In this document: piece after piece, positions 41,071-63,063 of the stretch
How positions within the stretch are numbered: position 1 is the first letter of the stretch
Layout: each line of letters opens with the position of its first letter
DNA from: Corallococcus exercitus
GTDB lineage: Bacteria > Myxococcota > Myxococcia > Myxococcales > Myxococcaceae
DNA: 64,000 bases
Direction: 5' to 3'
Assembly (NCBI RefSeq): GCF_042231735.1
Contig: NZ_CP102577.1
Span: 3,167,281-3,231,280 of the forward strand
Notes under the pieces: model-generated
What the model was told of the DNA's origin: nothing
Databases searched by the model: none
Seen by the model: only the letters and a program-made list of their open reading frames with translations
Made by a program: the position numbers and the translations under genes

Positions 41071-42210
41071 CTAGAAGCCGTACAGCTTGGAGATGATCTC
41101 CTTCATCACCTCGGAGGTGCCGCCGCCGATGGTGATGAGCCGCACGTCGCGCCACATGCGCGCGATGGGCGTCTCCTCGATGTAGCCCATGCCGCCGAAG
41201 AACTGCTGGCAGTCGTAGGCCACGCGCTGGGCCAGGTCCCCGGCGAAGAGCTTCGCCATGGAGATCTCCTTCACCGGGTTCTCCTTCCGGTCGTAGAGGT
41301 CCACCGCGTGGTAGTTGAGCCGCCGCGCCGCCTCCACCGCCGTCAGGTGCTCCACGAACTTGTGGCGCCACACCTGGAACTTGATCAGCGGCCGGCCGAA
41401 CGCCTCGCGCTCGTTGCCGTACTGGAGCGCGTCCTCCAGCATCCGGTCCATGCCGCCCACCGTGGTGATGGCGCCCACCAGGCGCTCACCCTGGAAGTTG
41501 GTCATGATGTGGTAGAAGCCCTGGTTCTCCTCGCCCAGCACGTAGCGCGCGGGGATGCGGCAGTCCTCGAAGTAGAGGATGGCCGTGTCCGAGGACAGGT
41601 TGCCCACCTTGTCCAGCTTCTTGGAGACGCCGAACCCCTTCACGTCCGTGGGGAACGTCACCAGCGAGATGCCGCCGTAGCCCTCCTCCCCCGTGCGCAC
41701 CGCCAGCGTGATGAAGTCCGCGCGCGTGCCGTTGGTGATCCACATCTTGGAGCCGTTGATGACGTAGTCGTCACCGTCGCGGCGCGCCGTCGTCTTGATG
41801 CTCGCCACGTCGGAGCCGCAGCCCGGCTCGCTCACGCCCAGCGCCGCGATTTTCTCGCCCTTGAGCGCGGGCTCCAGGAACTCGCGCTTCTGCTCGTCGG
41901 TGCCAATCTCGTTGATGATGGGCGTGGCCATCTGGCTCTGCACCAGGAGCGCCATGTTCACGCCCGCGTTGCGGCTGCGCGACAGCTCCTCCGCGAACGC
42001 CGTCACGTACCAGTAGTCCAGGCCGCTGCCGCCGTACTTCGGGTCGTGGTTGATGCCCAGGAAGCCCAGCTCGCCGCACTTCTTGAACAGCTCGCGGGGG
42101 AAGATGCCCGCCCGGTCCCAGTCCAGGCCATGGGGCGCCATCTCCTTCTCCACGAAGGCACGCACCGACCTGCGAAACGCCTCGTGCTCCTCGGTGAACG
42201 GGTTGAGCAT
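41071..42210 (-). CDS. Acyl-CoA dehydrogenase
   Basis: Full-length ACAD fold (379 aa): N-terminal helical domain, middle beta domain (GSKMWITNG) and C-terminal domain with catalytic Glu region. Confidence 0.85.
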
Positions 42211-42439
42211 CGCGAGTCCTCGGGGGTTGTCCCGCTGTGGGTTGATTCGCGAGTCAATAGCAGGCGCCCACCGTCAGCCACAAGCGACGCCCCCCGTCCC
42301 TGCCGCCCGCGACGCCCGCCTCCCTGGTGACGCAGCGCACGGGTGACGGTGTTGTGAAGAAGTCTTGAGGGCCGGGGGGCAGGCAGCCAAGCCCGCAGGA
42401 TGACTGGGGAGTGGATAGTCCGCACTCCGGAGTATCCTC

Positions 42440-42486
42440 TTGACAGATAATCGAGTGTCGGTAATTTCTAGCCCACAAAGAAATTA
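42440..42486 (+). promoter_or_regulatory. Candidate promoter (TTGACA-N16-TAATTT) overlapped by an inverted repeat TAATTTCT-N9-AGAAATTA; possible operator for the operon-encoded MarR
   Basis: TTGACA at 42440-42445. The IR at 42462-42486 overlaps the -10. It lies 58 bp upstream of the efflux-operon start. Confidence 0.35.
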
Positions 42487-42543
42487 GCCGGAGCAGGTGC
42501 CAGGGCGGGTGTCCCGCCGGCGAACCGGCAGGAGTTCGGACGC

Positions 42544-43644
42544 GTGAATCAGCGAATCTTGGCTGCCGTGGTGGCCGTGGCGGTGTCGACGGCGGGGTGC
42601 TCGAAGGCGGGCGCGGAGAAGGCGCAGCTGCCGACGCAGCAAGAGGGCTCCACCGCACTGGGAGTCAAGGCGATCACGCCGGCCACGGAGCTGGAGCAGA
42701 ACGTGACGCGCGTCACCGGCCAGGTGCGCTCCAAGCAGGAGGCCGTCCTGGGTCCCCAGGCGACGGGCACGCTGGCGAAGGTGAACGTCCGGGTGGGCGA
42801 CAAGGTGAAGAAGGGCGACGTGCTGGCGCAGCTGGACACGTCCAACGTGAGCATCGCGGTGGACCAGGCGAAGGCGGCCAAGGACATGGCGGACGCCGCG
42901 CTGCAGCTGGCCTCCAGCAACCTGGAGCGCATGCGCAAGGTGGCCGAGTCCGGCGGCGTCGCGGCCAACACCCTGGAGCAGGCGGAGATCGGCCAGAAGC
43001 AGGCCGCGGCCCAGGCGGCCCAGGCCGGCGCGGCGTACCGGCTGGCGGTGGAGAACCTGCGGGACCACTCCATCATCGCGCCCTTCAACGGCATCATCAC
43101 CGCGCGCACGAAGAACGTGGGTGACTCGGTGGCGATGACGCCCTCCACCCCGGTGTTCTCCATCGTGGACGCGGACGGGCTGGAGATCCGGATGCTGGTG
43201 CCGGAGTCCGTCATCGACAACGTGGCGCCGGGCACCGTGACGCCGGGCACCGTGAACCCCAGCGGCATGCGCTTCGAGGCGAAGGTGGCCAACGTGGGCG
43301 CCGTCATCGACGCGCAGAGCCGCACCGTGGAGGTGCTGGCGGACGTGACGGGCACCCCGGAGCGCCCGCTGCGCCCCGGCGCGCTGGTGGAGATGGACTT
43401 CTCCAAGGCCGCGGGGGACGCGGGCAACGGCCTGTTCCTGCCGGCGCAGGCGGTCAGCAGCAAGGGCCAGGACGGCTTCGTGTGGGTGGTGCAGGACGGC
43501 ACCGTGCGCAAGCGCGACGTGCGCGTGCAGCGGGTGCTGCCGGGCTACGTGAAGGTGCTGCAGGGCCTGACGGCGGAGGAGCGCGTGCTCGCCGACGCCT
43601 CGTTGGACGTCAAGGAGGGAACCGCAGTGCGCGTGGCGCAGTAG
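42544..43644 (+). CDS. RND efflux periplasmic adaptor (membrane fusion protein, HlyD family) lipoprotein
   Basis: Lipobox LSTAGCS, coiled-coil hairpin and beta-barrel/MP domains typical of the AcrA/MexA family. Confidence 0.85.
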   Translation: MNQRILAAVVAVAVSTAGCSKAGAEKAQLPTQQEGSTALGVKAITPATELEQNVTRVTGQVRSKQEAVLGPQATGTLAKVNVRVGDKVKKGDVLAQLDTSNVSIAVDQAKAAKDMADAALQLASSNLERMRKVAESGGVAANTLEQAEIGQKQAAAQAAQAGAAYRLAVENLRDHSIIAPFNGIITARTKNVGDSVAMTPSTPVFSIVDADGLEIRMLVPESVIDNVAPGTVTPGTVNPSGMRFEAKVANVGAVIDAQSRTVEVLADVTGTPERPLRPGALVEMDFSKAAGDAGNGLFLPAQAVSSKGQDGFVWVVQDGTVRKRDVRVQRVLPGYVKVLQGLTAEERVLADASLDVKEGTAVRVAQ

Positions 43645-43679
43645 CGGTTCCCCCTCTCCTCTTCTTTCTGGGTATCTGA

Positions 43680-46828
<3,149 letters not shown>

Positions 46829-46832
<4 letters not shown>

Positions 46833-47395
46833 TGCGTCGCCCCACCTCCATCACCTCCCCCTCGGAGTCCGAAGCGCGCTCCGAGGGGAAGGACGAGGCC
46901 GCCGAAGAAAAGGCCGCGATGGAGCGCCTGCTCCAGGAAGGGGATCAGTCCACGCCGGACTCACGCCGCTTCATGGGGCTCATCCGGGAGCTGGCCCACT
47001 TCCGCTCCCTGAGGGATCCGCTGGCGAGCCTCTGCGACGACATGCGGCTGACCCCCACCCAGGTGCACGCGCTTGGGTGGCTGGGCATGGATGGCCCCAT
47101 CCAGGTGGGAGTGCTGGCGCAGCGCATCGGCATCACCAAGAAGACCATCACCGGGGTGGTGGACCGCCTGGAGGACATGGGCATGGTGGAGCGCGGCCGG
47201 GACGCGGAGGACCGCCGCGCCGTCACCGCGAAGCTCACCGACCGGGGGTGTGAAATCTACAAGGTCATCCAGCTGATGACGGACGCAGGCATCCGCCGCC
47301 TGATGGGCCTGCTCCCCGAGGACGACCGCGAGGCGCTGTTCGGCATCATCGAACGGATGCTCGCCCGCATGAAGGCCAGCGCCCCGCCGCGCTGA
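46829..47395 (+). CDS. MarR-family transcriptional regulator
   Basis: wHTH region LTPTQVHALGWLGMDGPIQVGVLAQRIGITKKTITGVVDRLEDMGMVERGRDAEDRR. ATGA overlap with the RND gene. Confidence 0.8.
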
Positions 47396-48561: not shown

Positions 48562-48583
48562 GCCGCGAACGTCGACCCGAGCT

Positions 48584-50335
48584 TCAGGGCCCGTCCTGAC
48601 GCTGTCCGCCCGGCCGCAGGCGCTGGAGGCCCGCGGAGAGCGCGGCCTTCCCGGAGGCCATCCACCGGCGGCCCCGCTGCCGCGCGACCATCACCGAGCC
48701 CAGCACGAGCCGCTGGGCGCGCATCTGGAGCAGGTCCGCGCGCAGCTCCATGGGCGTCACGGTGCGGATGCGGCCCTGCTCGTAGGCCTCCGTGATGGCG
48801 CGGCGCTGGAGCTTGCCGCTGCTCGTCTTCTGGAGCTGGCCGTAGCGGATGAAGAGGACGTCCTCTTGCGCGAGCGTGACGCCCACCGTCTCCAGCACCG
48901 ACTGGCAGACCTGCTTGCGGCTGTCCTCCAGGCGCTCCAGCGCGGACGGGTGGTTCACCTCCGCCAGCACCACGAGGCGCCCCTTCACCTGGATGACGGC
49001 GGTGCGGCCCGGGCGGATGAAGGCCAGCCGCTCCACGGCCTGCTCGAAGTCCGCGGAGAAGAAGCTCTGGCCGTTCACCTTGATGCGGTCGTTGATCCGC
49101 CCGGTGATGAAGAGCTCGCCGCCCTGCTGGAAGCCCAGGTCGCCCGTGGCGTAGAAGCCCTCCTCGCCGCGCAGGGGCCGGTCGTCCAGGAAGTACGACG
49201 GCGCGAGGCTGCCGCCGCGCAGCTCGATCTCGCCCATCTCGCCCTCGCCGCACACGCGGCCGTCCTCCGCGCGCAGCCGCACCTCGAACTCCGTCAGTGG
49301 CTGGCCCACGGAGATGGCGGGCTGGCCATTGGGCGCCGTGATGACGCGCACCGTGCGGCCCGGCGGCACGCTCGCGACCAGCAGCACCGTCTCCGCCATG
49401 CCGTAGCAGGGCATGAACACGTCGCGCCGGAGGCCGCACGGCGCGAGGATGTCCAGGAACTGCTCCAGGTTGGGGATGTTGATGGGCTCGCTGCCCAGGT
49501 AGATGCTGCGCACGCGCGACAGGTCCAGCCGCTTCAGGTCGTCCGCGTCCGCCGACTTGAGCGTCTTGAGCGCGTAGTCGATGGCGAAGTTGGGGATGAC
49601 GGAGCCCATCACCTTCTCGGAGGAGATGAGCTCCAGCCAGCCCAGCGGATCCATCAGGAACGAGGCGGGCTGCGACAGGAGCAGGTCATTGCCCACCGCG
49701 ATGCAGGTGAGCAGCCCGCCGATGAGCCCCATGTCGTGGTACAGCGGCAGCCAGCTCGTCACCCGGTCCTCGGACGTGCGGCCGTCGTGCCGGGTGATCA
49801 TCCGCAGGTTCGCGGCCAGGTTCTCCTGGGTGATGGGCACGCCCTTGGGGAACGACGTGGACCCGGACGAGAACTGCACGAACGCCAGCTCACCGGGCGC
49901 CACCTCGCGCAGCTTCGCGCCCGCGCGCTTCGCCCCCGCGGGCGGCAGCGACAGCCGCTCCAGGGGCAGCTCCAGCCCGGCCAGGCTCGGCGCGTCCAGC
50001 ACGAGCGAGGCGCCGTAGCGCTCCCGGATGCGCGCGAGGAAGTCCCGGTAGGGCCCCTTCGGCGTGCTCAGGATGTACGGCTTCACGGACAGGGGCACCG
50101 CGCCCAGCTCCATCAGCCCCAGGAACGAGAAGATGACGGCCGTGGAGGTTTCGAACGGCAGCACCACGCGCGTGCCCGGCGCGATGCCGCGCGCGCGGAA
50201 GTGCTCCGCCGCCCCGGCCACCCGGGAGGCGAACTCCCGGTAGGGCACGAACTCCGGCGGTCCGACGAAGTCGTCGTAGAGAAACAGACCGCGTCGCGGA
50301 TCCACCGCCTCCAGCCGCTGGATGATGTCGAGCAT
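48584..50335 (-). CDS. Fatty acyl-AMP ligase-like adenylating enzyme (ANL superfamily)
   Basis: AMP-binding core FVQFSSGSTSFPKGVPITQENL, with YATGDLG and GRINDRIKVNGQSF motifs. ATG at 50335 (MLDIIQRLE...). Confidence 0.7.
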   Translation of the reverse strand: MLDIIQRLEAVDPRRGLFLYDDFVGPPEFVPYREFASRVAGAAEHFRARGIAPGTRVVLPFETSTAVIFSFLGLMELGAVPLSVKPYILSTPKGPYRDFLARIRERYGASLVLDAPSLAGLELPLERLSLPPAGAKRAGAKLREVAPGELAFVQFSSGSTSFPKGVPITQENLAANLRMITRHDGRTSEDRVTSWLPLYHDMGLIGGLLTCIAVGNDLLLSQPASFLMDPLGWLELISSEKVMGSVIPNFAIDYALKTLKSADADDLKRLDLSRVRSIYLGSEPINIPNLEQFLDILAPCGLRRDVFMPCYGMAETVLLVASVPPGRTVRVITAPNGQPAISVGQPLTEFEVRLRAEDGRVCGEGEMGEIELRGGSLAPSYFLDDRPLRGEEGFYATGDLGFQQGGELFITGRINDRIKVNGQSFFSADFEQAVERLAFIRPGRTAVIQVKGRLVVLAEVNHPSALERLEDSRKQVCQSVLETVGVTLAQEDVLFIRYGQLQKTSSGKLQRRAITEAYEQGRIRTVTPMELRADLLQMRAQRLVLGSVMVARQRGRRWMASGKAALSAGLQRLRPGGQRQDGP

Positions 50336-50360
50336 GCGGACCTCCCCTCCTCGTGGTTCT

Positions 50361-51278
50361 TCAGTGCGCGGGCGCCACCTGGCGCATCCACGCGAGTACG
50401 CGGGGCAACACCTCGGCGCGGGCGCGCTCTCCGCGCACCACGTCGAAGTGGCCCGCCTCCCAGCTGAGCCCCTGCGCGCGTCCCAGGACGGCCAGCTCCT
50501 TGCGAGCACTGCCCAGGTGGGCCACCAGCTTCTGCGCGCGCGGGGGCGACGCGTGGAACATGTCCGCCGCGCCCACGCCCGCGAACACCGGCAGCGTCAC
50601 CCGGCCCAGCGCGCTCCAGTAGTCCGTCGCGCCGTCCGCGCTGCGGAACGCGCCCGTGGGCGCCCAGTCCGTGAACTGCCGCATCACGCCCGCGGGTTCG
50701 TCCCAGGGTCCCTGCTTCAGCGCCTTCGCGGGGAAGCGCCCCAGCACTCCCGCCACCGCGGAGGAGAAGCCCAGCTGGAAGCGCTTCTTGAACCCGCCGT
50801 CGGTGTAGTCGTTCACCGCCGAGGACAGCGTGCACACGCCGGTCAGCGACGCCTGGAGCGAGGGGTCCACCCCCAGCGCCGCCAGCGCCGCGTAGCCCGC
50901 CATGCTGTGGGCCAGCAGGAACAGCGGCCCGGGGTGGCGCGAGCGCACGGCCCGCACCAGGTCCGGGAGGTCGTGGCGCACGTACGTGTCGAAGCTCCAG
51001 TCGTACGCCCGCTTCGCGGGCCAGCGGCTCCTGCCATGGCCGCGCAGGGACGCGACGTAGGCCACGCAGCCCTCGTCCACGAAGTAGCGCGCCGGTCCGT
51101 CACCCTGCCCGCCCAGGAAGAAGCGGCCGTCGGAGAACAGACCCGGGACGAAGAGGATGCCGGGCGCGGAAGGAGGCGTCGCGGACGTGCGCGCCTCCAC
51201 GACGTGCAGCGCGTGCTCCTGGGACGTGGGGACCCAGAACTCCTGCGAGGCGAACTCCGGCTTCGCGTTCGTGCTCAT
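50361..51278 (-). CDS. Alpha/beta-fold hydrolase
   Basis: Nucleophile elbow LLAHSMAGY in the GxSxG context; 305 aa. Confidence 0.7.
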   Translation of the reverse strand: MSTNAKPEFASQEFWVPTSQEHALHVVEARTSATPPSAPGILFVPGLFSDGRFFLGGQGDGPARYFVDEGCVAYVASLRGHGRSRWPAKRAYDWSFDTYVRHDLPDLVRAVRSRHPGPLFLLAHSMAGYAALAALGVDPSLQASLTGVCTLSSAVNDYTDGGFKKRFQLGFSSAVAGVLGRFPAKALKQGPWDEPAGVMRQFTDWAPTGAFRSADGATDYWSALGRVTLPVFAGVGAADMFHASPPRAQKLVAHLGSARKELAVLGRAQGLSWEAGHFDVVRGERARAEVLPRVLAWMRQVAPAH

Positions 51279-51724
51279 GGGCGCGGTTCCCCGGCGGCGG
51301 TGGCCACCGGGACGCGCGCGGCGTCCAGGAACTGCTGCAGCGACGCGAGCGACCGGGCCCGCGCGTCCAGGAAGGCCACGCTCACCAGGGCCTCCACCGC
51401 CAGCGGCCCGTCCGCCGCCAGGAACACGCGCTGCCGGAAGCGCGCGCGGTAGTTGAGGCCGTCCGCCTCCAGCTCGTCCGCGGCGGGCGACTCCAGCTCC
51501 GTGTGCACCACCACGTCCCCGGGGGGAATCTCCCGGCGGTAGTCCACCTCCACGCGTGACACCACGGCCACCACCGGCCCGCCGCGCGTCAGCCCCTGCC
51601 GCTCCAGCCAGGCCCAGCGGCCGGCCTCCAGGTACTCCAGCGTGGTGGCGTTGTTCACGTGCCCCAGGACGTCCAGGTCGTTGGGACGCACGCGCAACGT
51701 GAGGGAGGACTCTTCGAAGTGCAC
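51275..51724 (-). CDS. Hotdog-fold acyl-CoA/acyl-ACP thioesterase (4HBT/YbgC-like)
   Basis: LRVRPNDLDVLGHVNNATTLEYLEAGRWAWL, the 4HBT signature. ATGA overlap with the hydrolase gene. Confidence 0.7.
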   Translation of the reverse strand: MHFEESSLTLRVRPNDLDVLGHVNNATTLEYLEAGRWAWLERQGLTRGGPVVAVVSRVEVDYRREIPPGDVVVHTELESPAADELEADGLNYRARFRQRVFLAADGPLAVEALVSVAFLDARARSLASLQQFLDAARVPVATAAGEPRP

Positions 51725-51763
51725 GGGGGATGTCCTTCTGGCTGCCGGGGGGTGGCAGCGACT

Positions 51764-52129
51764 TCAGGGGGACGGAGCGCGCGTCACGAGGACCACGGAC
51801 GAGACGAACCCTCCGCTATGCGACAGCGATACAGCGACCTGCAGGCCCTCGCGCGTCAGGTGCGCCGCGAGCGTGCCGTGGAACCGGAAGCGCGGCGCGC
51901 GCCGCGCGTCGTGGACGAGCTCCGCGTCCGTCCAGAACCAGCCGTCCACGGCGGGCAGCGCCTTGAAGAGGGCCTCCTTCGCGCTGAAGCCCGCCGCCAG
52001 GCTCTCCACCGGGTTCGCCGCGCGCTCGAAGTGGGCGAGCTCCGCGGCGGTGAAGAACACGTCCGGCTCCCGAAGGGCCCGTGCGGCCTCCAGCTCCGTG
52101 ACGGCCTGGAGGTCGTGGCCCAGGCCCAT
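51764..52129 (-). CDS. acpS: Holo-[acyl-carrier-protein] synthase (AcpS-type phosphopantetheinyl transferase)
   Basis: MGLGHDLQAV...FSAKEALFKALP...VSLSHSGGFVSSVVL aligns block-for-block with AcpS. The ATG shares a nucleotide with the upstream stop (TGATG). Confidence 0.7.
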   Translation of the reverse strand: MGLGHDLQAVTELEAARALREPDVFFTAAELAHFERAANPVESLAAGFSAKEALFKALPAVDGWFWTDAELVHDARRAPRFRFHGTLAAHLTREGLQVAVSLSHSGGFVSSVVLVTRAPSP

Positions 52130-53088
52130 CAACACCCGACGAGGTCCATCCAGGTGTCCTCCACCTCCTCGCGCGACGTCACCGTGATGCCGGTGATGCG
52201 CTTGAGGGCGTGGAAGATGAGCTGCTCCTTCTTGCGCAGCGCGTCCGGCGCGTAGAAGCCCTCGCGGTGCTCCAGCTGGTCCCACCAGTTGACGTGGGTG
52301 TCGCGGGATTCCACGCGCTCGCGCTTGCTGCCGTGCACCTCGCCGCCGTCGCGCAGGAACAGGTGCGCCACGGCGAAGGCCTCCTTCGCCTTGTACGCGC
52401 CGCTGTCCACCAGCGCCTTCGCGAAGGCGATGAAGTAGTTCATGTGCTGCACTTCGTCCGCCGCCACCTGCTTGAACAGCGCGCGCAGGCCCGGGTCCTG
52501 GACCATCTGCGAGCACTGGCCGTAGTCCACCGCCGCCACCACTTCGGAGATGGACAGCAGCGTGAGCGTGCGCAGCATGTCGTCGTCGGGGAACACCTTG
52601 CGGAACTCGATGAAGGTGGCGTCGGTGATGGGCTCCAGCCGCAGCACCGTGGACAGGCGGTTGAACGCCGTCTCGTGGTGCGCCTCCTCCTCGTTCCAGT
52701 AGCGGCTCCACGTGCCGCACGCCTGCATGATGGCGGCGACCGTGGGGTCCTTCTCCTGCCACCGGCGGCACTCCACGTCCGCCAGCCGCTCCAGCCGGTC
52801 CGCGCCCGGCTTCGTCGTCAGCTCCGCGCGCCCCGCGTTCCACACCAGGTGCCGGTCGGCTTCACCAATGTGCGTGAAGTCCACCGCGGAGAGCAGCTCC
52901 ACCACGCTCCAGCGCCGCGATTCATGCAGCCGCTGCTGCTCCCAGGTGATGTCCACCAGCGACAGGCCGCGCTGCGTGAGGGCTTCGTACAGCTCCGCCA
53001 TGATGGCCGGACGGCCTTCGGACGGGGTGACGCGGGGGGAGGTGACGGTCGCTTCTTCGTGCTCAAGGCTTCGCGCCAGGACACTCAT
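52129..53088 (-). CDS. Ferritin-like diiron-carboxylate protein, acyl-ACP desaturase-like
   Basis: Two E...ExxH motifs (NEEEAHHE; ADEVQHMNYF) spaced as in soluble acyl-ACP desaturases. ATG at 53088 overlaps the upstream ACP-like stop (ATGA). Confidence 0.55.
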   Translation of the reverse strand: MSVLARSLEHEEATVTSPRVTPSEGRPAIMAELYEALTQRGLSLVDITWEQQRLHESRRWSVVELLSAVDFTHIGEADRHLVWNAGRAELTTKPGADRLERLADVECRRWQEKDPTVAAIMQACGTWSRYWNEEEAHHETAFNRLSTVLRLEPITDATFIEFRKVFPDDDMLRTLTLLSISEVVAAVDYGQCSQMVQDPGLRALFKQVAADEVQHMNYFIAFAKALVDSGAYKAKEAFAVAHLFLRDGGEVHGSKRERVESRDTHVNWWDQLEHREGFYAPDALRKKEQLIFHALKRITGITVTSREEVEDTWMDLVGC

Positions 53089-53381
53089 GCCGACTTCCGC
53101 TCCGGGTTCGTGACTTCGCCCATGAACACCGACAGGACCTTCGACACGGGGGTATCCAGGGACAGCGCGGGCAGGCGCACCCGCAGTCCAAAGTCCTTGC
53201 GCAGCCCGTTGGACGTACGGGCAAAGGCTTCCATCAAGTCCACGCTGTTGGTCATGCGCTCGGAGCGCGTGATGAGCGCCGAGAGGGTCAGGTCTTCGGA
53301 GAACAGCTCGGCCTCCGTGAGACCCACGTTTTCCGCGAACTTCCTTCGGATGTATGACTCGAGCTCCTGCGCGTCGGGCAC
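53085..53381 (-). CDS. Acyl-carrier-protein-like small protein (stand-alone carrier)
   Basis: ~98 aa with an ACP-like helix II motif, TNSVDLMEAF (DSxxxxE-type Ser). GTG start at 53381 with an AGGAAGG RBS. Confidence 0.4.
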   Translation of the reverse strand: MPDAQELESYIRRKFAENVGLTEAELFSEDLTLSALITRSERMTNSVDLMEAFARTSNGLRKDFGLRVRLPALSLDTPVSKVLSVFMGEVTNPERKSA

Positions 53382-53528
53382 GGGGGACCTTCCTTCCCAG
53401 GGCTTGAAAGTCGATTTCCCAGTCAGAAAACAGGAAAGATCTAACTGTGGCTCCAGAGCTGTCAATCAGCAACGGGTCACTTTGGATCCGCGTGCGAAGC
53501 CGCCTTCGCGGGTCGTTTCACGCGTCAT

Positions 53529-54707
53529 TCATGCAATCAGGCGCGAGATTTCCTCAGCGGTGAAACCCGCGTCCTCCAGGATGACGCGCGAGTGCTGTCC
53601 CAGCGTGGGCGGTGGACGCAGTGCGACGTCGCCCATGCGCAGCGGCGTGAGCAGGTGCGTGACGCGGATGCCGCGCTGCGCGTCCTCCGCCTCCACGAAG
53701 AGGCCGCGCGCGCGCAGCTGCGGATCCGCCATCACCTCGTCCCCTTCCGCCACCGGCTCCACGCAGAACTCCGCGCCGGAGAGCTGCTCGCGCCAGTGCG
53801 CCAGGGGCTGGGACTCGAAGATGCGGGTGAGCTCCGCCTTCACGCGGGCGCTGGCTTCACCGCCGGTATACGCGTCGTCCAGGAGCTCCGGGCGGCCCAG
53901 CTTCGCGCAGAGCGCGCCGAAGAACTTGGGCTCCAGCGCGCCCACCGCGAGCCAGCGGTCGTCCGCGGTGCGGTACAGGCCGTAGCTGGGGTAGCCGCCA
54001 TTGAGCGCCTCGCTGCCGCGCGCAAGCGGCGTGCCTTCCGCGCCCATGAACAGGCGCGAGGCCAGGTGCAGGTGGAGGAACGCCAGCGCGCCGTCCGTCA
54101 TGGACACGTCCACGAAGCGGCCCACGCCGGTGCGCTCGCGCTCGTGCAGCGCGGCCAGGATGCCCACCACCGCGAAGAGGCTCCCCCCGCCGATGTCCGC
54201 CATCTGCACGCCCGGGAACGCGGGCGCGCCGCCGGCCTGCCCGCCGTAGCCCAAGAGCCCCGCGCGGGCCACGTAGTTGAGGTCGTGCCCCGCCTTGAGC
54301 CGGTCCGGCCCCGTCTGGCCGTAACCGGAGATGGCGCAGTAGATGAGCCGCGGGTTCTTCTGGCGCAGCACCGCTTCACCCACGCCCAGCTTGTCCATGA
54401 CGCCGGGGCGGAAGCTCTCCACCAGCACGTCGTAGTGGGACACGAGCCGCAAGAGCGCGTCGCGCCCCTGCGGCGCCTTGAGGTTCAGCGTGAGCGAGCG
54501 CTTGTTGCGGTGCAGCCCGTAGTAGAGCGCGCCCTCGCCGTCGCGGTGCGGCGGCATGTGGCGGGTGGCGTCCCCCACGTCCGGGTCCTCCACGGTGTCC
54601 ACGGTGGCGCCCAGGTCCGCCAGCACCAGCGTCGCGTACGGGCCGGGCAACAGGCGCGACAGATCCAGCACCCGCAGGCCCGCGAGGGGGGAAGACGACT
54701 CAGGCAT
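53529..54707 (-). CDS. CoA-transferase family III (CaiB/BaiF/alpha-methylacyl-CoA racemase family)
   Basis: LAGLRVLDLSRLLPGPYATLVLADLGA N-terminal signature and a conserved Asp region. Confidence 0.8.
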   Translation of the reverse strand: MPESSSPLAGLRVLDLSRLLPGPYATLVLADLGATVDTVEDPDVGDATRHMPPHRDGEGALYYGLHRNKRSLTLNLKAPQGRDALLRLVSHYDVLVESFRPGVMDKLGVGEAVLRQKNPRLIYCAISGYGQTGPDRLKAGHDLNYVARAGLLGYGGQAGGAPAFPGVQMADIGGGSLFAVVGILAALHERERTGVGRFVDVSMTDGALAFLHLHLASRLFMGAEGTPLARGSEALNGGYPSYGLYRTADDRWLAVGALEPKFFGALCAKLGRPELLDDAYTGGEASARVKAELTRIFESQPLAHWREQLSGAEFCVEPVAEGDEVMADPQLRARGLFVEAEDAQRGIRVTHLLTPLRMGDVALRPPPTLGQHSRVILEDAGFTAEEISRLIA

Positions 54708-54799
54708 GGAAGGGGGCTCCAGGGGGAGGTGGAGACATGCGGACGGCGCGTCCCCGCGAGGGTGACGCGCCGTCGGTACGACACGCTACGAAAGAGGCT

Positions 54800-55129
54800 T
54801 CAGCCCAGCAGCTTCGCCAGCTTCATGGCGAGGCCCATGTCCATCGGCTTGAACTTGAGCTTGCCCTGCATGGCGGCCATCTGAGCGTTCAGCTTGCCCT
54901 CGCGGATCTTCACGAAGTCGTCGTTGCTGACGGTGACCGTCATCTTCGACGCGCCGTTGAGACCCTCGGACACCCAGCCCTCGGGCTTGGTGGTGTCCAG
55001 CGTCCACTTGCCGCCACCCTCACCGGAGACGTCGAAGTGGATGATGGCGTTGATCTCCTTCGCCAGCTCCGGCTTCTCCTGCAGCTTGCCGGGGATCTGC
55101 GTCTCGATGATGTCCTTCGCGGTCGCCAT
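54800..55129 (-). CDS. SCP2 sterol/lipid-carrier domain protein
   Basis: MATAKDIIETQIPGKLQEKPELAKEINAIIHFDVSGEGGGKWTLD matches the SCP2 fold signature. Confidence 0.7.
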   Translation of the reverse strand: MATAKDIIETQIPGKLQEKPELAKEINAIIHFDVSGEGGGKWTLDTTKPEGWVSEGLNGASKMTVTVSNDDFVKIREGKLNAQMAAMQGKLKFKPMDMGLAMKLAKLLG

Positions 55130-55227: not shown

Positions 55228-55590
55228 TCAGACGCGCGAGGTGTCCACCGGGGGGCTGAGTGACTGTCGCACCATCGACAGCAGGTCGTTGAGCTCGAAG
55301 GGCTTGGCCAGGTGGCCCATGGCGCCAATGTCCTTCGCCTTGCTGCCGACGTTGCGGTCCGCGCTGAGGACGATGATGGGGATGCCCGCGAAGTCCGGCT
55401 TCTGGCGCATGCGCTGGGCGAACTCCCAGCCGTCCATCACCGGCATCATCAGGTCCAACAGGATGAGGTGGGGAGGGTCCGGCTCCAGGCGCTCCAGGGC
55501 CTCCTTGCCGTTGCGGGCCCGGCGGATCTCGAAGCCCTCGGCTTCGAGGATCTCCGAGAGGGCCTCCAGGATGTCGGGATCATCGTCCAC
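55228..55590 (-). CDS. Stand-alone response regulator receiver (CheY-like)
   Basis: DDDPDILE, LILLDLMMPVMDG with the phospho-acceptor Asp, IIVLSA and KP motifs; GTG start. Confidence 0.75.
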   Translation of the reverse strand: MDDDPDILEALSEILEAEGFEIRRARNGKEALERLEPDPPHLILLDLMMPVMDGWEFAQRMRQKPDFAGIPIIVLSADRNVGSKAKDIGAMGHLAKPFELNDLLSMVRQSLSPPVDTSRV

Positions 55591-57348: not shown

Positions 57349-59220
57349 TCAGTCCCCGCCGCCCTTGCCGCTCGCGTACATGCCGTCGATGAGCTTCATG
57401 TACTTCTGGCTGGCGACCTTGCGCTTCACCTTGAGGGTGGGCGTGAGCTCGCCGGACTCCTGGGTGAAGTCCGCCTTCATCACCTCGAACTTCTTGATGG
57501 TGGAGTACGGAGGAATCTCCGCGTTCACCTTCTTGAAGATCTCGGCGATGGCCTCGCGGATCTCCGGACGCTGGGAGTTCTGCTCGTAGCTGCCCACCGC
57601 GACGCCCTTGTCCTCCAGCAGCTTGCGCGCCGGCTCCTCCGACACGGTCACGAGCGCGACGAGGTACGGCTGCTTGTCGCCGTACACCATGGCCTGGCTG
57701 ATGAGCGGGAAGGTCTTGAGCGTGTTCTCGATGTTCTGCGGCGCCACGTTCTTGCCGCCCGCGGTGACGATGATGTCCTTCTTGCGGTCGGTGATGCGCA
57801 GGTAGTTGTCGGAGTCCACCTCGCCGATGTCACCGGTGTGGAACCAGCCGTCCGGATCCAGCACCTCCGCGGTGGCGGCGGGGTTCTTGTAGTAGCCCTT
57901 CATCACGCAGGGGCCACGCACCAGGATTTCACCGTCCGCGGCGATCTTGATCTCCGTGCCCGGCACCGGCGGGCCCACGGTGCCGATCTTGATCTTCTCC
58001 ACGCGGTTGGCGTTGCACGGAGCGCTCGTCTCCGTGAGGCCGTAGCCCTCCAGCACCTTGAGCTCGAGCAGGTCGAAGAAGTAGGCGATCTTCCGGGACA
58101 GCGGCGCGCCGCCGGAGATGAAGATGCGCATGTTGCCGCCGAGCTTCTCGTCCAGGGTCTTGCGCACCTTGGAGAACACCAGCTTCTTCGCCAGGCTGAA
58201 CTGGAGCGAGCTGTACTCGCGGCCCTGGCCCTTGGCCTCGGCGTACTCGTCGAAGAGGCCGAAGGCCCACTTGAAGAGCTTGCCCTTCACGCCGGGCGCG
58301 GCGGAGCCGTTGGCCACGACGTTGTTGTAGACCTTCTCGAACACGCGCGGCACGGACGGCAGCACCGTGGGGCGCGTCTCCGCCAGGTTCGCGAGCAGCT
58401 TGTCCACCGACTCCGCGATGATCAGCCGGAAGCCCATGGACAGCCACGCGGCCTTCACCACCTGGGCGAACACGTGCGCCAGGGGCAGGAAGAGCATGAC
58501 GGAGTCGTCCGGCTTCATCATGCCCATGGCCTGGGTGGCCTTCGCTTCGTAGGCCCAGTTGCCGTGGGTGAGGATGACGCCCTTCGGGTCGCCCGTGGTG
58601 CCGGAGGTGTAGACGAGCATGTTGGTGTCGTCCAACTTCACCTGCGACACGCGCTCGGTGAACGCGGACTCGGCGGCCTGGGGCTGGCCCTTGCCGGAGG
58701 CCACCATGTCCGCGAGCGACATCTCCTTGTCGCCGGAGACGGGGCCCTCGAAGACGACGATCTTCTGCAGCGTGGGGATGTCCCCCAGCTTGGAGCGCAC
58801 GCGGGACAGGCGGCCCGCCTGCTTGGCGTCCTTCTCGTCGTTGTCGACGAGCAGCAGCTTCGTCTCCGAGTGGTTCAGGACGTAGCGGCACTCATCCGGC
58901 GTGTTGGAGCCATAGATGGGCACCGTGATGGCCTGGGCCGCGCTGATGGCCAGGTCCGCGATGATCCACTGCAAGCTGGTATTGGCGAAGATGGCGACCC
59001 GGTCCCCGGGCTGGACGCCCTGGGCGATGAGGCCCGCCGCCTGCGCCTTCACGTCCTCCAATACCTGCGCGAACGTGACGTCCTGCCAGCGCCCGTCCTT
59101 CTTGTGGGTGACGCCTACCTTGGAGGCGTTCTGGGCCCGCTGGACAAGCAACTGGACGAGGTTCTGCTCCTGCGTCCCGCTCGCCGCGGGAGCCGTCGTG
59201 ACCTGACTCTCTGCCCTCAC
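57349..59220 (-). CDS. Long-chain-fatty-acid--CoA ligase (AMP-dependent synthetase)
   Basis: YTSGTTGDPKGV, YGLTETS and TGDIGE..DRKKDII motifs. GTG at 59220 overlaps the upstream stop (GTGA). Confidence 0.8.
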   Translation of the reverse strand: MRAESQVTTAPAASGTQEQNLVQLLVQRAQNASKVGVTHKKDGRWQDVTFAQVLEDVKAQAAGLIAQGVQPGDRVAIFANTSLQWIIADLAISAAQAITVPIYGSNTPDECRYVLNHSETKLLLVDNDEKDAKQAGRLSRVRSKLGDIPTLQKIVVFEGPVSGDKEMSLADMVASGKGQPQAAESAFTERVSQVKLDDTNMLVYTSGTTGDPKGVILTHGNWAYEAKATQAMGMMKPDDSVMLFLPLAHVFAQVVKAAWLSMGFRLIIAESVDKLLANLAETRPTVLPSVPRVFEKVYNNVVANGSAAPGVKGKLFKWAFGLFDEYAEAKGQGREYSSLQFSLAKKLVFSKVRKTLDEKLGGNMRIFISGGAPLSRKIAYFFDLLELKVLEGYGLTETSAPCNANRVEKIKIGTVGPPVPGTEIKIAADGEILVRGPCVMKGYYKNPAATAEVLDPDGWFHTGDIGEVDSDNYLRITDRKKDIIVTAGGKNVAPQNIENTLKTFPLISQAMVYGDKQPYLVALVTVSEEPARKLLEDKGVAVGSYEQNSQRPEIREAIAEIFKKVNAEIPPYSTIKKFEVMKADFTQESGELTPTLKVKRKVASQKYMKLIDGMYASGKGGGD

Positions 59221-59957
59221 TTGAGCTCCTCCTGGATGTCGGCATCCACCTTCTTGGCCCACTGCTGCACCCGTTGCCCCTCCGCGGGGTTGTACGCGGT
59301 GCTTCCCTGCTTGACCTTCTCGATGGCCGCGCCCGCTTCCTTCGCCTTGCCGTCCTTCAGCAGCGTCTCGGCCAGGTAGTAGTGCGCGCGCAGCGACTGC
59401 GGAAACTTGGCGATGGCCTTCTGGTAGTACTCCGCGGACTTGCCCAGGTCGCGCTTCGGCCAGGGCAGCTCGTAGAAGTATCGCCCCTTCACCAACCAGG
59501 GACCGCCGTACTCGTACGTGGGGTCGAGTTTCAGCGCGGTGTCCAGGCGCTCGTTGAACTTGCCCTCCAGGCCGTCACCCAGCGCCTTCATGATGCCCAC
59601 GGCCTGCGAGTAGGAACCGATGCCGCAGGCGGCGAAGTAGTAGCCCTCCACGCGCGCGGGCTGGAGCTTCGCGGCCTTGTCCCCGGCCTCCCACGTCTGC
59701 TTGCCCAGGACCATCTTGAGCTTCTTCTCCGTGGCGCCGTCCGCCTGCCACTGGAGGATGCGGGCCTTGCGCCACGCGAGGTCGAAGTCGTCCGGCGTGG
59801 CCTTCAGCGCGTCCGACAGCCCCGTCTCCAACACCTTCACGGATTCCGCGTCGCCACGTTTCGCGTACAACGCGTCGAGTTGGTCGAGCAGCGCGGGATC
59901 CGCGGCGTTCGCCGGCAGAGCCCAAAGCACCCAAAGGGCAAGCAATTTCAAGCGCAT
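59217..59957 (-). CDS. Hypothetical secreted alpha-helical (TPR-like) protein
   Basis: Signal peptide MRLKLLALWVLWALPANA, high GC3; translationally coupled to the fadD-like gene. Confidence 0.4.
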   Translation of the reverse strand: MRLKLLALWVLWALPANAADPALLDQLDALYAKRGDAESVKVLETGLSDALKATPDDFDLAWRKARILQWQADGATEKKLKMVLGKQTWEAGDKAAKLQPARVEGYYFAACGIGSYSQAVGIMKALGDGLEGKFNERLDTALKLDPTYEYGGPWLVKGRYFYELPWPKRDLGKSAEYYQKAIAKFPQSLRAHYYLAETLLKDGKAKEAGAAIEKVKQGSTAYNPAEGQRVQQWAKKVDADIQEELK

Positions 59958-61069: not shown

Positions 61070-62497
61070 TCAACGCTTGGGCGCGGGGAAGATTTTCTCG
61101 GGGTTGAGCAGGCCTGATGGATCAAAAAAGGTCTTCAGGCGGCGCTGCAGCTCCAGCAGCGCGGGAGCCTGCTCCAGCGCCAGATATTCCCGCTTCGCAT
61201 GTCCCACGCCGTGTTCACCGGTGATGGTGCCGCCCAGCTCCACGGTGAGCATCAGCATGCGGCGCAGCGCCTCGTCGACGAGGGGGCGCTGGGCGGGGCC
61301 GTCGTAGAGGATGTTGGCGTGCAGGTTGCCGTCGCCCGCGTGGCCATACGTGGCCACGGTGAGCCCCAGCTCCGCGCCCATCTTCTTCAGCCGCTCGATG
61401 ATTTCGGGAATTTTCGAGCGGGGCACCACGATGTCCTCGGAAATCTTGGCCGGCTTGAGCGCGCGCAGGGCCGGGGAAATCACGCGCCGCGCGGCCCACA
61501 GCTTCTCGCGCTGGGACTCGTCCTGCGCCACCAGGGTCTGCGTGGCCCCGTGCTGATTGCAGCGGTCCCCCAACAGTTGGAGCTCCGCGAGGACGCCTTC
61601 GGGGGTGTTGCCGTCGACCTCGGCGATGAGGGCCGCGCCCGCGCCCGGGGGGAACTGGAAGCTGCCCCGGTGCACGATGGCCTGGACGGCGACCTCGTCG
61701 ATGAGCTCCAGGCAGCGCGGCAGGATGCCGGCGGCGAGCACCGCGGAGACGCCGCGCGCCGCCTCCAGGACGGAGGGGAACACCACCAGCGCGGTCATCA
61801 CCTGGCGGGGCAGCGGAATGAGCTGCACCGTGATTTCGGTGGCCACGCCGAGCGTGCCCTCGGAGCCGACGAACAGCCCCACCAGGTCATAGCCGGCCAC
61901 GCCCTTGATGGTGCGCCGGCCCACGCGCAGCACCTCGCCATCCGGCATCACCCACTCCAGCCCGATGACGTAGTCGCGCGTGACGCCGTACTTCAGGGCG
62001 CGCGGGCCGCCGGCGTTCTCCGCCACGTTGCCGCCCAGGGTGCAGAACTCCCAGGAGTTCGGGTCGGGCGGATAGAAGAGGCCCTGGGCCTCCACCGCCT
62101 TCATCAGGTCGCCCGTCACCACGCCGGGCTCCACCACCGCGGTGAGGTCCTCCGTGGAGATGGAGCGGATCCGGTTCATGCGCTCCAGGCTCACCGCCAT
62201 GCCGCCCCTCAGGGGCAGCGAACCGCCGCTCTTGCCGCTGCGCGCGCCGCAGGGGGTGAAGGGCACGCCGTGCGCCTGGCAGGCCTTGAAGATGGCGGAC
62301 ACCTGCGCGGTGGTCTCCGGGAGGAGGACGGCGTCGGGCCGGTAGACGCCGCTGTCGGACTCGTCGCGCGCGTAGGCATCGAGCGTGTCCGCGTCCCGCC
62401 TCACCTGGCCTTCGGACAGCACGCCCGCCAGGGCCTCCAGCACCTCCGCCACGCGCTCGGGCGCCACCCGCTCGAAGCGTTGGGAGGCGGGGTTCAT
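61070..62497 (-). CDS. FAD-linked oxidase (GlcD/D-lactate dehydrogenase family)
   Basis: FAD-binding PCMH domain (PCGARSGKSGGSLP) and C-terminal FAD-oxidase domain. Confidence 0.8.
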   Translation of the reverse strand: MNPASQRFERVAPERVAEVLEALAGVLSEGQVRRDADTLDAYARDESDSGVYRPDAVLLPETTAQVSAIFKACQAHGVPFTPCGARSGKSGGSLPLRGGMAVSLERMNRIRSISTEDLTAVVEPGVVTGDLMKAVEAQGLFYPPDPNSWEFCTLGGNVAENAGGPRALKYGVTRDYVIGLEWVMPDGEVLRVGRRTIKGVAGYDLVGLFVGSEGTLGVATEITVQLIPLPRQVMTALVVFPSVLEAARGVSAVLAAGILPRCLELIDEVAVQAIVHRGSFQFPPGAGAALIAEVDGNTPEGVLAELQLLGDRCNQHGATQTLVAQDESQREKLWAARRVISPALRALKPAKISEDIVVPRSKIPEIIERLKKMGAELGLTVATYGHAGDGNLHANILYDGPAQRPLVDEALRRMLMLTVELGGTITGEHGVGHAKREYLALEQAPALLELQRRLKTFFDPSGLLNPEKIFPAPKR

Positions 62498-63063
62498 CTG
62501 CCGGCCCCCGTGCGTGCGCCCAGCCGGGCCCACAGCTCGCGGCGCAGGGGGCCGTCGCGGCGCAGGCGCCCTTCATAGGCCTCCGCGTGGGTGACGGCGT
62601 CGCGCTGGTGGTCGGCCCTCAGCCGCAGACACGCCTGCTCCGCCTCCAGGATGCAGGCCGTCGCGGGGCTGTCGAGCACGCGGGCGAGCGAGCGCGCCAC
62701 CTGCCGGGCCAGGTCCTCCTGGAGGATGAGCCGGTGCGCGAAGGAGTCCACCAGCGCCCCGATGCGCCCGAAGCCCACCACGCGTGAACCCGGCACGTAG
62801 GCCACGTGCGCGCGGCCGGTGAAGGGCAGCAGGTGGTGCGGGCACATGGAGTGGAAGCGCAGGTCCGTCACCACCACCAGCTCCCCGGAGGAGTCCGCGG
62901 GCGCGGGGTAGGTCTTCCCGAGCACCTCCTCGGGCGTGCGGCCGTAGCCGTCGAGGAAGCCGTTCGCCCACACGTCGGCCACGCGCGTCGGCGTGTCCAC
63001 CAGGTTCACGTCCTGGAGGTCGAGCCCCGCGGCGGTGAGGAAGTCGCGGACCGCCCGGGCCAT
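62494..63063 (-). CDS. folE: GTP cyclohydrolase I
   Basis: FHSMCPHHLLPFTGRAHVAYVPGSRVVGFGRIGALVD catalytic block. ATG at 63063 (MARAVRDFL...); the ORF opens further upstream with a Pro-rich, probably untranslated, extension. Confidence 0.75.
   Translation of the reverse strand: MARAVRDFLTAAGLDLQDVNLVDTPTRVADVWANGFLDGYGRTPEEVLGKTYPAPADSSGELVVVTDLRFHSMCPHHLLPFTGRAHVAYVPGSRVVGFGRIGALVDSFAHRLILQEDLARQVARSLARVLDSPATACILEAEQACLRLRADHQRDAVTHAEAYEGRLRRDGPLRRELWARLGARTGAGR

Follow-up and report, generated by a model that had tools for sequence, protein, structure and literature searches.

The window analysed in this work is a stretch of 64,000 nucleotides (nt) of the Corallococcus exercitus genome (contig NZ_CP102577.1, positions 3,167,281 to 3,231,280), and hosts a cassette of genes encoding a putative carrier protein, a ferritin-like diiron-carboxylate protein, and enzymes which may load acyl chains onto the carrier and release them. 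Eight co-directional genes lie here on the minus strand, as noticed in a preliminary description, which had assigned all of them to one lipid-modification pathway. The unit is made of six genes only (48584-53381, minus strand). We favour, with moderate confidence, the notion that these represent a self-contained, horizontally mobile thiotemplated cassette, which oxidises a fatty acid and has been inserted between two resident Corallococcus genes. The window is approximately 70% GC, and raw lists of open reading frames (ORFs) are full of spurious frames; gene models were derived from the frame analysis of GC content at third codon positions (GC3), and from the inspection of start codons and ribosome-binding sites (RBS).

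The first gene of the cassette, the divergent acyl carrier protein (ACP)-like ORF (53085-53381, minus strand, 98 aa), has a GTG start codon and is preceded by a GGGAAGGAAGG RBS. It is followed on the same strand by the genes encoding the diiron protein (52129-53088, 319 aa), an AcpS-type 4'-phosphopantetheinyl transferase (PPTase; 51764-52129, 121 aa), a hotdog thioesterase of the 4HBT/YbgC-like type (51275-51724, 149 aa), an alpha/beta hydrolase of the Hydrolase_4 type featuring an AHSMAG elbow (50361-51278, 305 aa), which is an optional accessory gene, and, at the end of the cassette, an adenylating ligase resembling fatty acyl-AMP ligases (FAALs; 48584-50335, 583 aa). Hydrolase and thioesterase genes, as well as diiron and carrier genes, overlap at ATGA sequences, AcpS and diiron genes at a TGATG sequence; in the two other pairs, ligase and hydrolase genes are 25 nt apart, thioesterase and AcpS genes 39 nt. 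Seven genes had been described as chained. The overlaps are real, but only six genes are tightly chained, and the seventh, a family-III CoA-transferase or alpha-methylacyl-CoA-racemase-like gene (53529-54707, minus strand, 392 aa), is 147 nt off. The 147-nt intergenic stretch (53382-53528) has a lower GC content and no coding-phase signal. The CoA-transferase gene and the adjacent gene encoding an SCP2 lipid-binding protein (54800-55129, minus strand, 109 aa) are resident flanks, and lie outside of the cassette. Six of the eight proteins score above Pfam cut-offs (AMP-binding, alpha/beta hydrolase, 4HBT, ACPS, CoA_transf_3 and SCP2), and for these the families originally named are confirmed; the diiron protein falls below the FA_desaturase_2 cut-off, and the 98-aa ORF finds no match.

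The cassette is widespread, and its composition is largely constant. A scan based on motifs, covering 185,579 species with one genome each, retrieved 83 loci, 80 of which were kept and searched by tblastn with the window proteins; counts refer to genes found near the diiron gene. Loci reside in Actinomycetota (31), Myxococcota (30) and Cyanobacteriota (13), the remaining six in Betaproteobacteria (3), one gammaproteobacterium, one acidobacterium and one unclassified bacterium, and span at least five phyla (Myxococcota, Actinomycetota, Cyanobacteriota, Acidobacteriota and Pseudomonadota). Carrier and thioesterase genes are found each in 78 of the 80 loci, ligase genes in 77, AcpS genes in 62. 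In 71 of the 74 loci having all of them, carrier, diiron, thioesterase and ligase genes lie in this order on one strand, and the same gene string can be recognized in the precomputed Pfam annotation of one Streptomyces and one Kitasatospora locus. Co-occurrence of the six core genes is far beyond chance, and the core genes do travel together in related genomes, as one would expect if the grouping initially made was correct for the core; for CoA-transferase and SCP2 genes such co-occurrence fails. A putative dedicated carrier, its own AcpS-type PPTase, an adenylating, presumed loading enzyme, a diiron protein and a thioesterase form one conserved unit, distinct from the housekeeping fatty acid synthase. 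CoA-transferase and SCP2 genes have been found in 17 and 16 of the 80 loci, respectively, all of them myxobacterial.

The alpha/beta hydrolase gene is present in 39 of the 80 loci, from Myxococcota, Actinomycetota and Betaproteobacteria, and in none of the cyanobacterial ones. In 12 actinomycete loci (as L003 13544-14212, L034, L042 and L044) a gene encoding an enoyl-CoA hydratase (crotonase) directly follows the ligase gene, and in all 12 the hydrolase gene is absent. The two are nearly mutually exclusive, being both present in one of the 80 loci, where the hydratase gene is far away. A gene encoding a transporter of the major facilitator superfamily (MFS) lies upstream of the cassette in 18 actinomycete loci, which suggests that the product is exported. 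The clustering of all flanking ORFs revealed no further gene common to loci across phyla. Cyanobacterial copies are flanked by unrelated housekeeping genes, with no adjacent polyketide synthase (PKS) or non-ribosomal peptide synthetase (NRPS) gene. In Kitasatospora sp. NBC_01266 a nitric-oxide synthase gene is found about 3 kb upstream of the cassette (L003 5822-7039), but is not conserved elsewhere.

By its sequence, the diiron protein is predicted to be a remote and isolated offshoot, on the margin of the clan formed by soluble acyl-ACP desaturases. It matches the Pfam model FA_desaturase_2 (PF03405) over residues 122-238 only, scoring 19.7 bits (cut-off 22.7, E=4.3e-4). Several actinomycete orthologues carry a precomputed PF03405 match, weak where its strength is given, and all nine outgroup proteins scanned match the same model, eight of them above threshold. 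The alignment of 22 orthologues from several phyla (71% mean identity) showed that residues E106, E135, H138, E182, E212 and H215 are invariant in all of them. These make up an E...ExxH...E...ExxH pattern, i.e. a 2 His/4 carboxylate site, in which the members of each E...ExxH pair are about 30 residues apart. In HMMER alignments YWNEEEAHH, SE182 and ADE212xxH215 coincide with the motifs of Mycobacterium tuberculosis DesA2 (E about 0.01). Five of the ligands are thus aligned with DesA2; E106 was assigned solely from spacing, helix position and invariance. The segments W49-S61 and W83-R98 are likewise invariant, and are candidates for the surface on which the carrier docks. The AlphaFold2 model (predicted local distance difference test, pLDDT, 75.5) is a ferritin-like helical bundle, and Foldseek lists plant acyl-ACP desaturases first, then R2lox, RNR-R2 and ADO, all as weak matches. 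Ranking being weak and mixed, the fold identifies the superfamily, not the family. A diiron oxygenase with the two ExxH motifs of desaturases had been described at this locus: the six-ligand site holds, the specific kinship less so, given the sub-threshold Pfam score and a fold ranking not specific to desaturases. The nearest sequence relatives are nevertheless FA_desaturase_2 proteins, and not rubrerythrin or PhnZ.

When 1.84 billion cluster representatives were searched with a profile, only 41 proteins were retrieved at E<=1e-3, among which about three full-length family representatives and many fragments. In three outgroup relatives (P0235, P0250 and P0251) a 4Fe-4S ferredoxin domain is fused N-terminally to the desaturase-like domain. 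These fusions may be a hint that ferredoxin is the electron donor in this branch of the clan. A CylC/NocO-type halogenase was considered, because of the FAAL-ACP-diiron layout and of the cyanobacterial copies, and discarded. The diiron protein features E134-E135-A-H-H138 and V208-A-A-D211-E212-x-x-H215, and the whole family lacks both the Gln of QExxH and the third His of HxxDExxH. Similarly, neither a Pfam AurF match (PF11583) nor a 3 His/4 carboxylate site, typical of AurF/CmlI diiron N-oxygenases, was found.

The 98-aa protein has been more elusive. No Pfam PP-binding match was found in 18 family members even at E<=10, no PDB match with either the single sequence or a profile, no NCBIfam match, and hhalign comparisons to a PF00550 protein and to E. 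coli AcpP were not significant. The residues N45-S46-x-D48-L49-x-E51 are, however, invariant in all 18 sequences, which represent six lineages, and the motif N-S46-[VIL]-D-L-M-E is conserved in the 78 carrier orthologues extracted from the loci. In the AlphaFold2 model (pLDDT 86) Ser46 is located at the N-terminus of helix 46-64. As many as 44 of the top 50 Foldseek matches in the PDB are carrier-containing entries (ACP, DltC, peptidyl carrier protein), though with template modelling (TM) scores of 0.4-0.6, probabilities up to 0.84 and E-values all above 0.1, and are thus weak. Some family members are named 'carrier domain-containing' in UniRef. An invariant serine, candidate for PP binding and lying within N-S-[VIL]-D-L-M-E at the start of a helix, is therefore present, in keeping with the role first assigned to this ORF. 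Motif, predicted fold, and adjacent AcpS, ligase and thioesterase genes support, while not proving, that the protein is a divergent carrier.

The AcpS-type protein is a single-domain protein of 121 aa, matching the Pfam ACPS model (PF01648) with 39.6 bits (cut-off 25). It scores below the cut-offs of all NCBIfam holo-ACP synthase models, and is therefore regarded as a divergent member of the family. Its gene lies two genes downstream of the carrier gene in 62 of the 80 loci.

The ligase matches AMP-binding (PF00501, 161 bits) and AMP-dom_DIP2-like in Pfam. Its best NCBIfam relatives are FAALs (PRK09192, MbtM and FadD32), as are the top PDB chains (7r7e, EcFAAL 3pbk, LpFAAL 3kxw, and FadD23/32/28). 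HMMER alignments to 3pbk, 3kxw and 7r7e revealed that the ligase lacks approximately 18 residues between YGMAE and ISVGQPL, just after motif A5, where the FAAL-specific insertion is located. The gap is shared by most ligases of the loci: of the 84 homologous ORFs measured there, 66 have an A5-to-A7 distance of 81 aa, versus 101-108 aa in three structurally characterised FAALs. The insertion, about 20 aa in the N-terminal domain, is described as the hallmark of the family, although CoA rejection does not depend on it alone (PMC8460268, PMC12820801). The enzyme had been called a FAAL: FAALs are indeed its closest characterised relatives, but since the specific insertion is missing, it is best described as FAAL-like and insertion-less.

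The thioesterase matches the Pfam models 4HBT_2 (60.4 bits) and 4HBT (38.9 bits), carries a D-x-D-x-x-G-H-V-N-N stretch near the N-terminus, and finds its best PDB relatives in 2fuj and YbaW/FadM (1njk); NCBIfam YbgC/FadM models are below their cut-offs. The hydrolase matches Hydrolase_4 (50.3 bits) and Abhydrolase_1 (30.5 bits). The fatty acid may be provided by the optional hydrolase acting on a lipid; another possibility is that this enzyme catalyses a second release or transfer step. The lipase LitG has been proposed to recruit a fatty acid from lipids in lipothrenin biosynthesis (PMC10616846).

The genes flanking the cassette are resident. In Myxococcus xanthus tblastn located all 13 flank genes of the window in colinear order, and did not detect any of the six cassette genes. 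The M. xanthus locus includes genes for a FAD oxidase, a sigma factor, a TPR protein, an acyl-CoA synthetase, TatA, a histidine kinase, a receiver, SCP2, the CoA-transferase, a convergent hypothetical protein, MarR, AcrB, a membrane fusion protein (MFP) and an acyl-CoA dehydrogenase. There the CoA-transferase gene and the convergent hypothetical gene are immediate neighbours, and it is between them that in Corallococcus approximately 5 kb (48562-53528) are inserted. Because colinear flanks exist in M. xanthus without the cassette genes, the cassette is regarded as an insertion. In Archangium violaceum the same site hosts a very large modular, multi-kilobase PKS (L086 10502-19173), and no cassette. 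The site just downstream of the CoA-transferase gene is thus empty in M. xanthus, occupied by the cassette in Corallococcus and by a PKS in A. violaceum, and appears to be a place where biosynthetic islands of Cystobacterineae are repeatedly inserted. Myxococcus, Pyxidicoccus, Archangium and Cystobacter do not appear in the lists of diiron matches.

The upstream junction of the island falls in the 147-nt stretch at 53382-53528, which is a candidate promoter region. The stretch contains TTGACA-N15-TTAGAT; a consensus scan found no sigma-70-type site in it, and the scan for promoters and terminators returned nothing above background.

The cassette is horizontally mobile. Plasmids carrying it are found in Nostoc sp. 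ATCC 53789, Nostoc sp. C057 and Xenorhabdus sp. TH1. Both plasmid copies inspected, in Xenorhabdus sp. TH1 (L087 3840-6311) and in Nostoc sp. ATCC 53789 (L088 1-5931; a five-gene copy on pNsp_b), lie within a few kb of genes coding for Tn3 and IS110 transposases, or for an integrase, XisH and XisI. No AcpS match was found in the Xenorhabdus plasmid copy. Identity of the diiron orthologues is 91-95% in Corallococcus species, about 70% in Streptomyces, Kitasatospora, Frankia and Catellatospora, and about 60% in Nostoc, Oscillatoria and other cyanobacteria, and is discordant with taxonomy: Streptomyces orthologues are 70-72% identical, orthologues in metagenome-assembled genomes of Nannocystaceae, from the same phylum as Corallococcus, 70-71%, and the orthologue of a bacterium labelled as Myxococcaceae only 58%. 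Per-gene analysis showed that the GC3 of the island (0.86-0.97) is like that of the flanks. The island is therefore fully ameliorated, with no compositional sign of recent transfer, and the insertion is read as old.

The resident flanks follow a different history, of vertical inheritance. CoA-transferase orthologues are 70-80% identical across Myxococcus, Pyxidicoccus, Archangium, Cystobacter and Stigmatella (about 80% in the first four genera), and the SCP2 gene adjoins the CoA-transferase gene in both M. xanthus and A. violaceum, neither of which has the cassette. Away from myxobacteria the two genes are never associated with the cassette (50 of 50 loci), and in 13 of the 30 myxobacterial loci neither lies near it. 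The participation of both proteins in the pathway, assumed in the preliminary description, has to be abandoned on these grounds. The SCP2 protein scores 65.6 bits in Pfam. The CoA-transferase matches CoA_transf_3 with 352.7 bits, but its best PDB matches are alpha-methylacyl-CoA racemases (M. tuberculosis MCR 1x74, E=1e-63), and myxobacterial orthologues are named racemase in several databases. The stretches AGHDLNY and MADIGGG resemble the His/Asp catalytic pair of MCR. Rather than in CoA transfer, the enzyme, along with the adjoining SCP2 protein, may serve in the catabolism of branched-chain (iso) fatty acids.

Other features of the window deserve mention. The gene next to SCP2 encodes a receiver-domain protein (55228-55590). 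The resident neighbourhood is lipid- and efflux-flavoured, and includes an MFP, an AcrB-type pump of the resistance-nodulation-division (RND) type and a MarR regulator (42472-47395, plus strand), a long-chain acyl-CoA synthetase region (57349-59262, minus strand), an acyl-CoA dehydrogenase (41071-42273) and a FAD-linked oxidase (61070-62572). These efflux and lipid genes are conserved in M. xanthus, and are therefore not specific to the cassette. A 1532-aa ORF (14094-18692, plus strand), which starts with a receiver-like sequence, has a GC3 of 0.97 and lies in a stretch where A prevails very strongly over T (AT skew up to 0.47), with up to 76% GC nearby; it may encode a long, charged regulator of the coiled-coil type.

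The steps of the pathway, all of them inferred, would be as follows. The carrier would be converted to the holo form at Ser46 by the AcpS-type PPTase. By homology and context, the FAAL-like ligase would adenylate a free fatty acid, and move it to the phosphopantetheine thiol of the carrier. The diiron enzyme would then oxidise the tethered chain by using O2 and an external reductant of the ferredoxin type, and the hotdog thioesterase would hydrolyse the thioester, yielding a free, modified fatty acid. Diiron and carrier genes are probably translationally coupled, because the start codon of the former overlaps the stop codon of the latter (ATGA). A two-electron desaturation seems the most likely reaction, in view of the 2 His/4 carboxylate ligand set and of the kinship to soluble acyl-ACP desaturases, the nearest relatives; hydroxylation, epoxidation and C-C cleavage are further candidates.

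Several points weigh against this scheme. The carrier is not recognizable by any sequence method, and its structural matches have weak E-values. The AcpS gene is missing from 18 of the 80 loci, and the cassette encodes no reductase or ferredoxin. The insertion-less ligase might also use CoA, and might take a substrate other than a fatty acid. Finally, ferritin-like diiron enzymes acting on acyl-ACP are known to desaturate, chlorinate (PMC12101540) or, as BioE, cleave C-C bonds (PMC12704756). Known chemistry being so varied, the type of reaction cannot be read from the fold.

A cassette following the same tethering logic, but equipped with a diiron enzyme which is not a desaturase, is the alternative to be taken most seriously, though we regard it as improbable. 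Hydroxylation, epoxidation or a BioE-like cleavage would yield hydroxy or epoxy, dicarboxylic or shortened acids. BioE shows that a ferritin-like diiron enzyme is able to cleave acyl-CoA/ACP (PMC12704756), the isolation of the diiron family in sequence space leaves room for new chemistry, and the enoyl-CoA hydratase which replaces the hydrolase in actinomycete loci hints at an activated or oxygenated product. Yet, the nearest sequence relatives of the diiron protein are all FA_desaturase_2, and BioE is reported to be most similar to ADO among structurally characterised diiron enzymes, its ligands (E26/E53/H56/E125/E155/H158) implying a smaller protein with a different spacing; BioE adjoins bioF/D, and bio genes flank none of the cassette copies inspected. 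A pimelate pathway of the BioE type was accordingly rejected, in view of size, ligand spacing and lack of bio genes nearby, and BioE retained only as a precedent for alternative chemistry. Another scenario is that the modified acyl chain, instead of leaving as a free acid, is handed to a lipid, an amino acid or a PKS/NRPS, as an acceptor or as an assembly line encoded elsewhere, the hotdog protein being an editing thioesterase and the hydrolase an acyltransferase. The usual task of a FAAL paired with a stand-alone ACP is to prime PKS/NRPS lines (PMC8460268), one Streptomyces locus is accompanied by genes for a second ligase, a PP-binding protein, acyl-CoA dehydrogenases and a P450, and in Archangium a PKS occupies the same chromosomal site. 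This scenario is nonetheless unlikely, as flanks from different phyla share no conserved partner, housekeeping or mobile-element genes surround the cyanobacterial and plasmid copies, and the thioesterase is as conserved as the carrier (78 of the 80 loci).

The lack of the FAAL-specific insertion, along with the nitric-oxide synthase gene near one Kitasatospora locus, may be taken to suggest that the substrate is not a fatty acid, and that the ligase loads an aromatic, amino or other acid to be modified on the carrier by an N- or C-oxygenase of the AurF/VlmB type. This we hold to be very unlikely. The best matches of the ligase are all fatty acyl-AMP ligases, and the nitric-oxide synthase gene is not conserved across loci. 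The diiron ligands are 2 His/4 carboxylate, without the third histidine provided by the HxxDExxH motif in the AurF/CylC type (PMC12101540). The least credible scenario is the eight-gene pathway, with CoA-transferase and SCP2 in charge of passing on or carrying the product. In Corallococcus, Citreicoccus and some Hyalangium the eight genes do lie side by side and in one direction, and both additional proteins have lipid-related annotations. In M. xanthus and Archangium, however, SCP2 and CoA-transferase genes have the same neighbours and no cassette; the CoA-transferase tracks myxobacterial taxonomy, and the cassette does not; the 147-nt gap separates the two; and neither gene is found near the cassette in the non-myxobacterial and in the 13 myxobacterial loci mentioned above. 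As a conserved association, the eight-gene unit is refuted.

The six-gene thiotemplated cassette is of interest in several respects. Carrier-tethered acyl chains and ferritin-like diiron enzymes have recently provided unexpected chemistry, as the chlorination catalysed by CylC and NocO, and the C-C cleavage catalysed by BioE, and the cassette would add another family to the list. The boundaries of the diiron family are sharp: members from different phyla are about 70% identical, and 1.84 billion sequence clusters contain only about 40 relatives. The cassette comes with the parts needed for reconstitution (carrier, PPTase, ligase and thioesterase), and M. xanthus, where the insertion site is empty, is a natural host for gain-of-function tests. 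Mining tools relying on PP-binding and FAAL models probably overlook it. A secreted lipid, should this be the product, could act as a new signal or antagonist in soil and in symbiotic communities. One may speculate, and we consider this a rather doubtful guess, that the diiron protein founds a new functional class, acting only on its private, Pfam-invisible carrier, and that the mobile cassette, of five or six genes, makes a new oxidised fatty-acid metabolite, for instance a diffusible signal or allelochemical, shared through horizontal gene transfer among myxobacteria, mycelial actinomycetes, filamentous cyanobacteria and a few proteobacteria.

The RefSeq annotation of the cassette genes is generic, and literature searches, whose coverage lacked most papers in subscription journals, so that absence is no proof, found no description of the cassette. 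Similarities to known systems are nevertheless several. The cassettes for polyynes and terminal alkynes (cay/pgn; JamABC/TtuABC) also combine a stand-alone ACP loaded by a ligase, an O2-dependent diiron oxidation of the tethered chain, and release by a thioesterase. The desaturases of these cassettes are membrane-bound histidine-box enzymes. In contrast, the Corallococcus cassette has a soluble ferritin-like oxidase, a carrier not seen by Pfam, an insertion-less ligase and a private PPTase, which polyyne and alkyne cassettes lack. The likeness is functional only, as the oxidase superfamily differs. In polyyne biosynthesis a FAAL, a designated ACP, desaturases and a thioesterase work together (PMC9828172).

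Closer in terms of the oxidase are the CylA/CylB/CylC and NocL/NocM/NocO sets, in which a soluble ferritin-like diiron enzyme acts along with a cognate ACP loaded by the adjacent FAAL. CylC and NocO are diiron halogenases associated with a FAAL and an ACP, and NocO is soluble only when co-expressed with its cognate ACP (PMC12101540), a need which recalls the overlapping carrier and diiron genes of the cassette. The CylC-type motifs QExxH and HxxDExxH provide 3 His and 3 Glu, leaving an open halide site (PMC12101540), whereas the cassette family has EExxH and DExxH, and retains all four carboxylates. CylC homologues are almost confined to cyanobacteria (PMC8406957), while the cassette diiron family spans at least five phyla. 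BioE, a ferritin-like diiron enzyme which converts long-chain acyl-CoA/ACP thioesters into a pimeloyl thioester, stands alone by bioF/D (PMC12704756). Both BioE and the cassette protein are ferritin-like enzymes, known or presumed to act on acyl thioesters, and are set apart here by description, not by sequence comparison. The lipothrenin cluster, including LitD (a FAAL), LitE (R2-like) and LitF (an ACP), was examined and set aside, as the gene set is different, and the deletion of LitE had a minor effect only.

In the biosynthesis of the mycobactin lipid tail the FAAL MbtM loads the ACP MbtL, and MbtN desaturates the tethered chain before it is handed off. MbtN is a flavin acyl-ACP dehydrogenase, and the product goes to the siderophore, and is not hydrolysed. 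The logic of loading and tethered oxidation is thus the same in MbtL/MbtM/MbtN and in the cassette, but a flavin enzyme takes the place of the diiron one, and transfer that of hydrolysis. The soluble acyl-ACP desaturases (plant delta-9, DesA1/DesA2, PF03405) share with the cassette diiron protein the ferritin-like fold, the 2 His/4 carboxylate site and the motifs W-x-x-E-E-x-x-H and D-E-x-x-H, but differ by an identity of about 12-20% to it, and by its sub-threshold Pfam score. Known soluble desaturases use the housekeeping ACP, and are not known to be encoded together with a ligase, a PPTase and a thioesterase. With respect to known thiotemplated systems, the cassette is new in having a soluble diiron family, a Pfam-invisible carrier family, a private AcpS and an insertion-less ligase.

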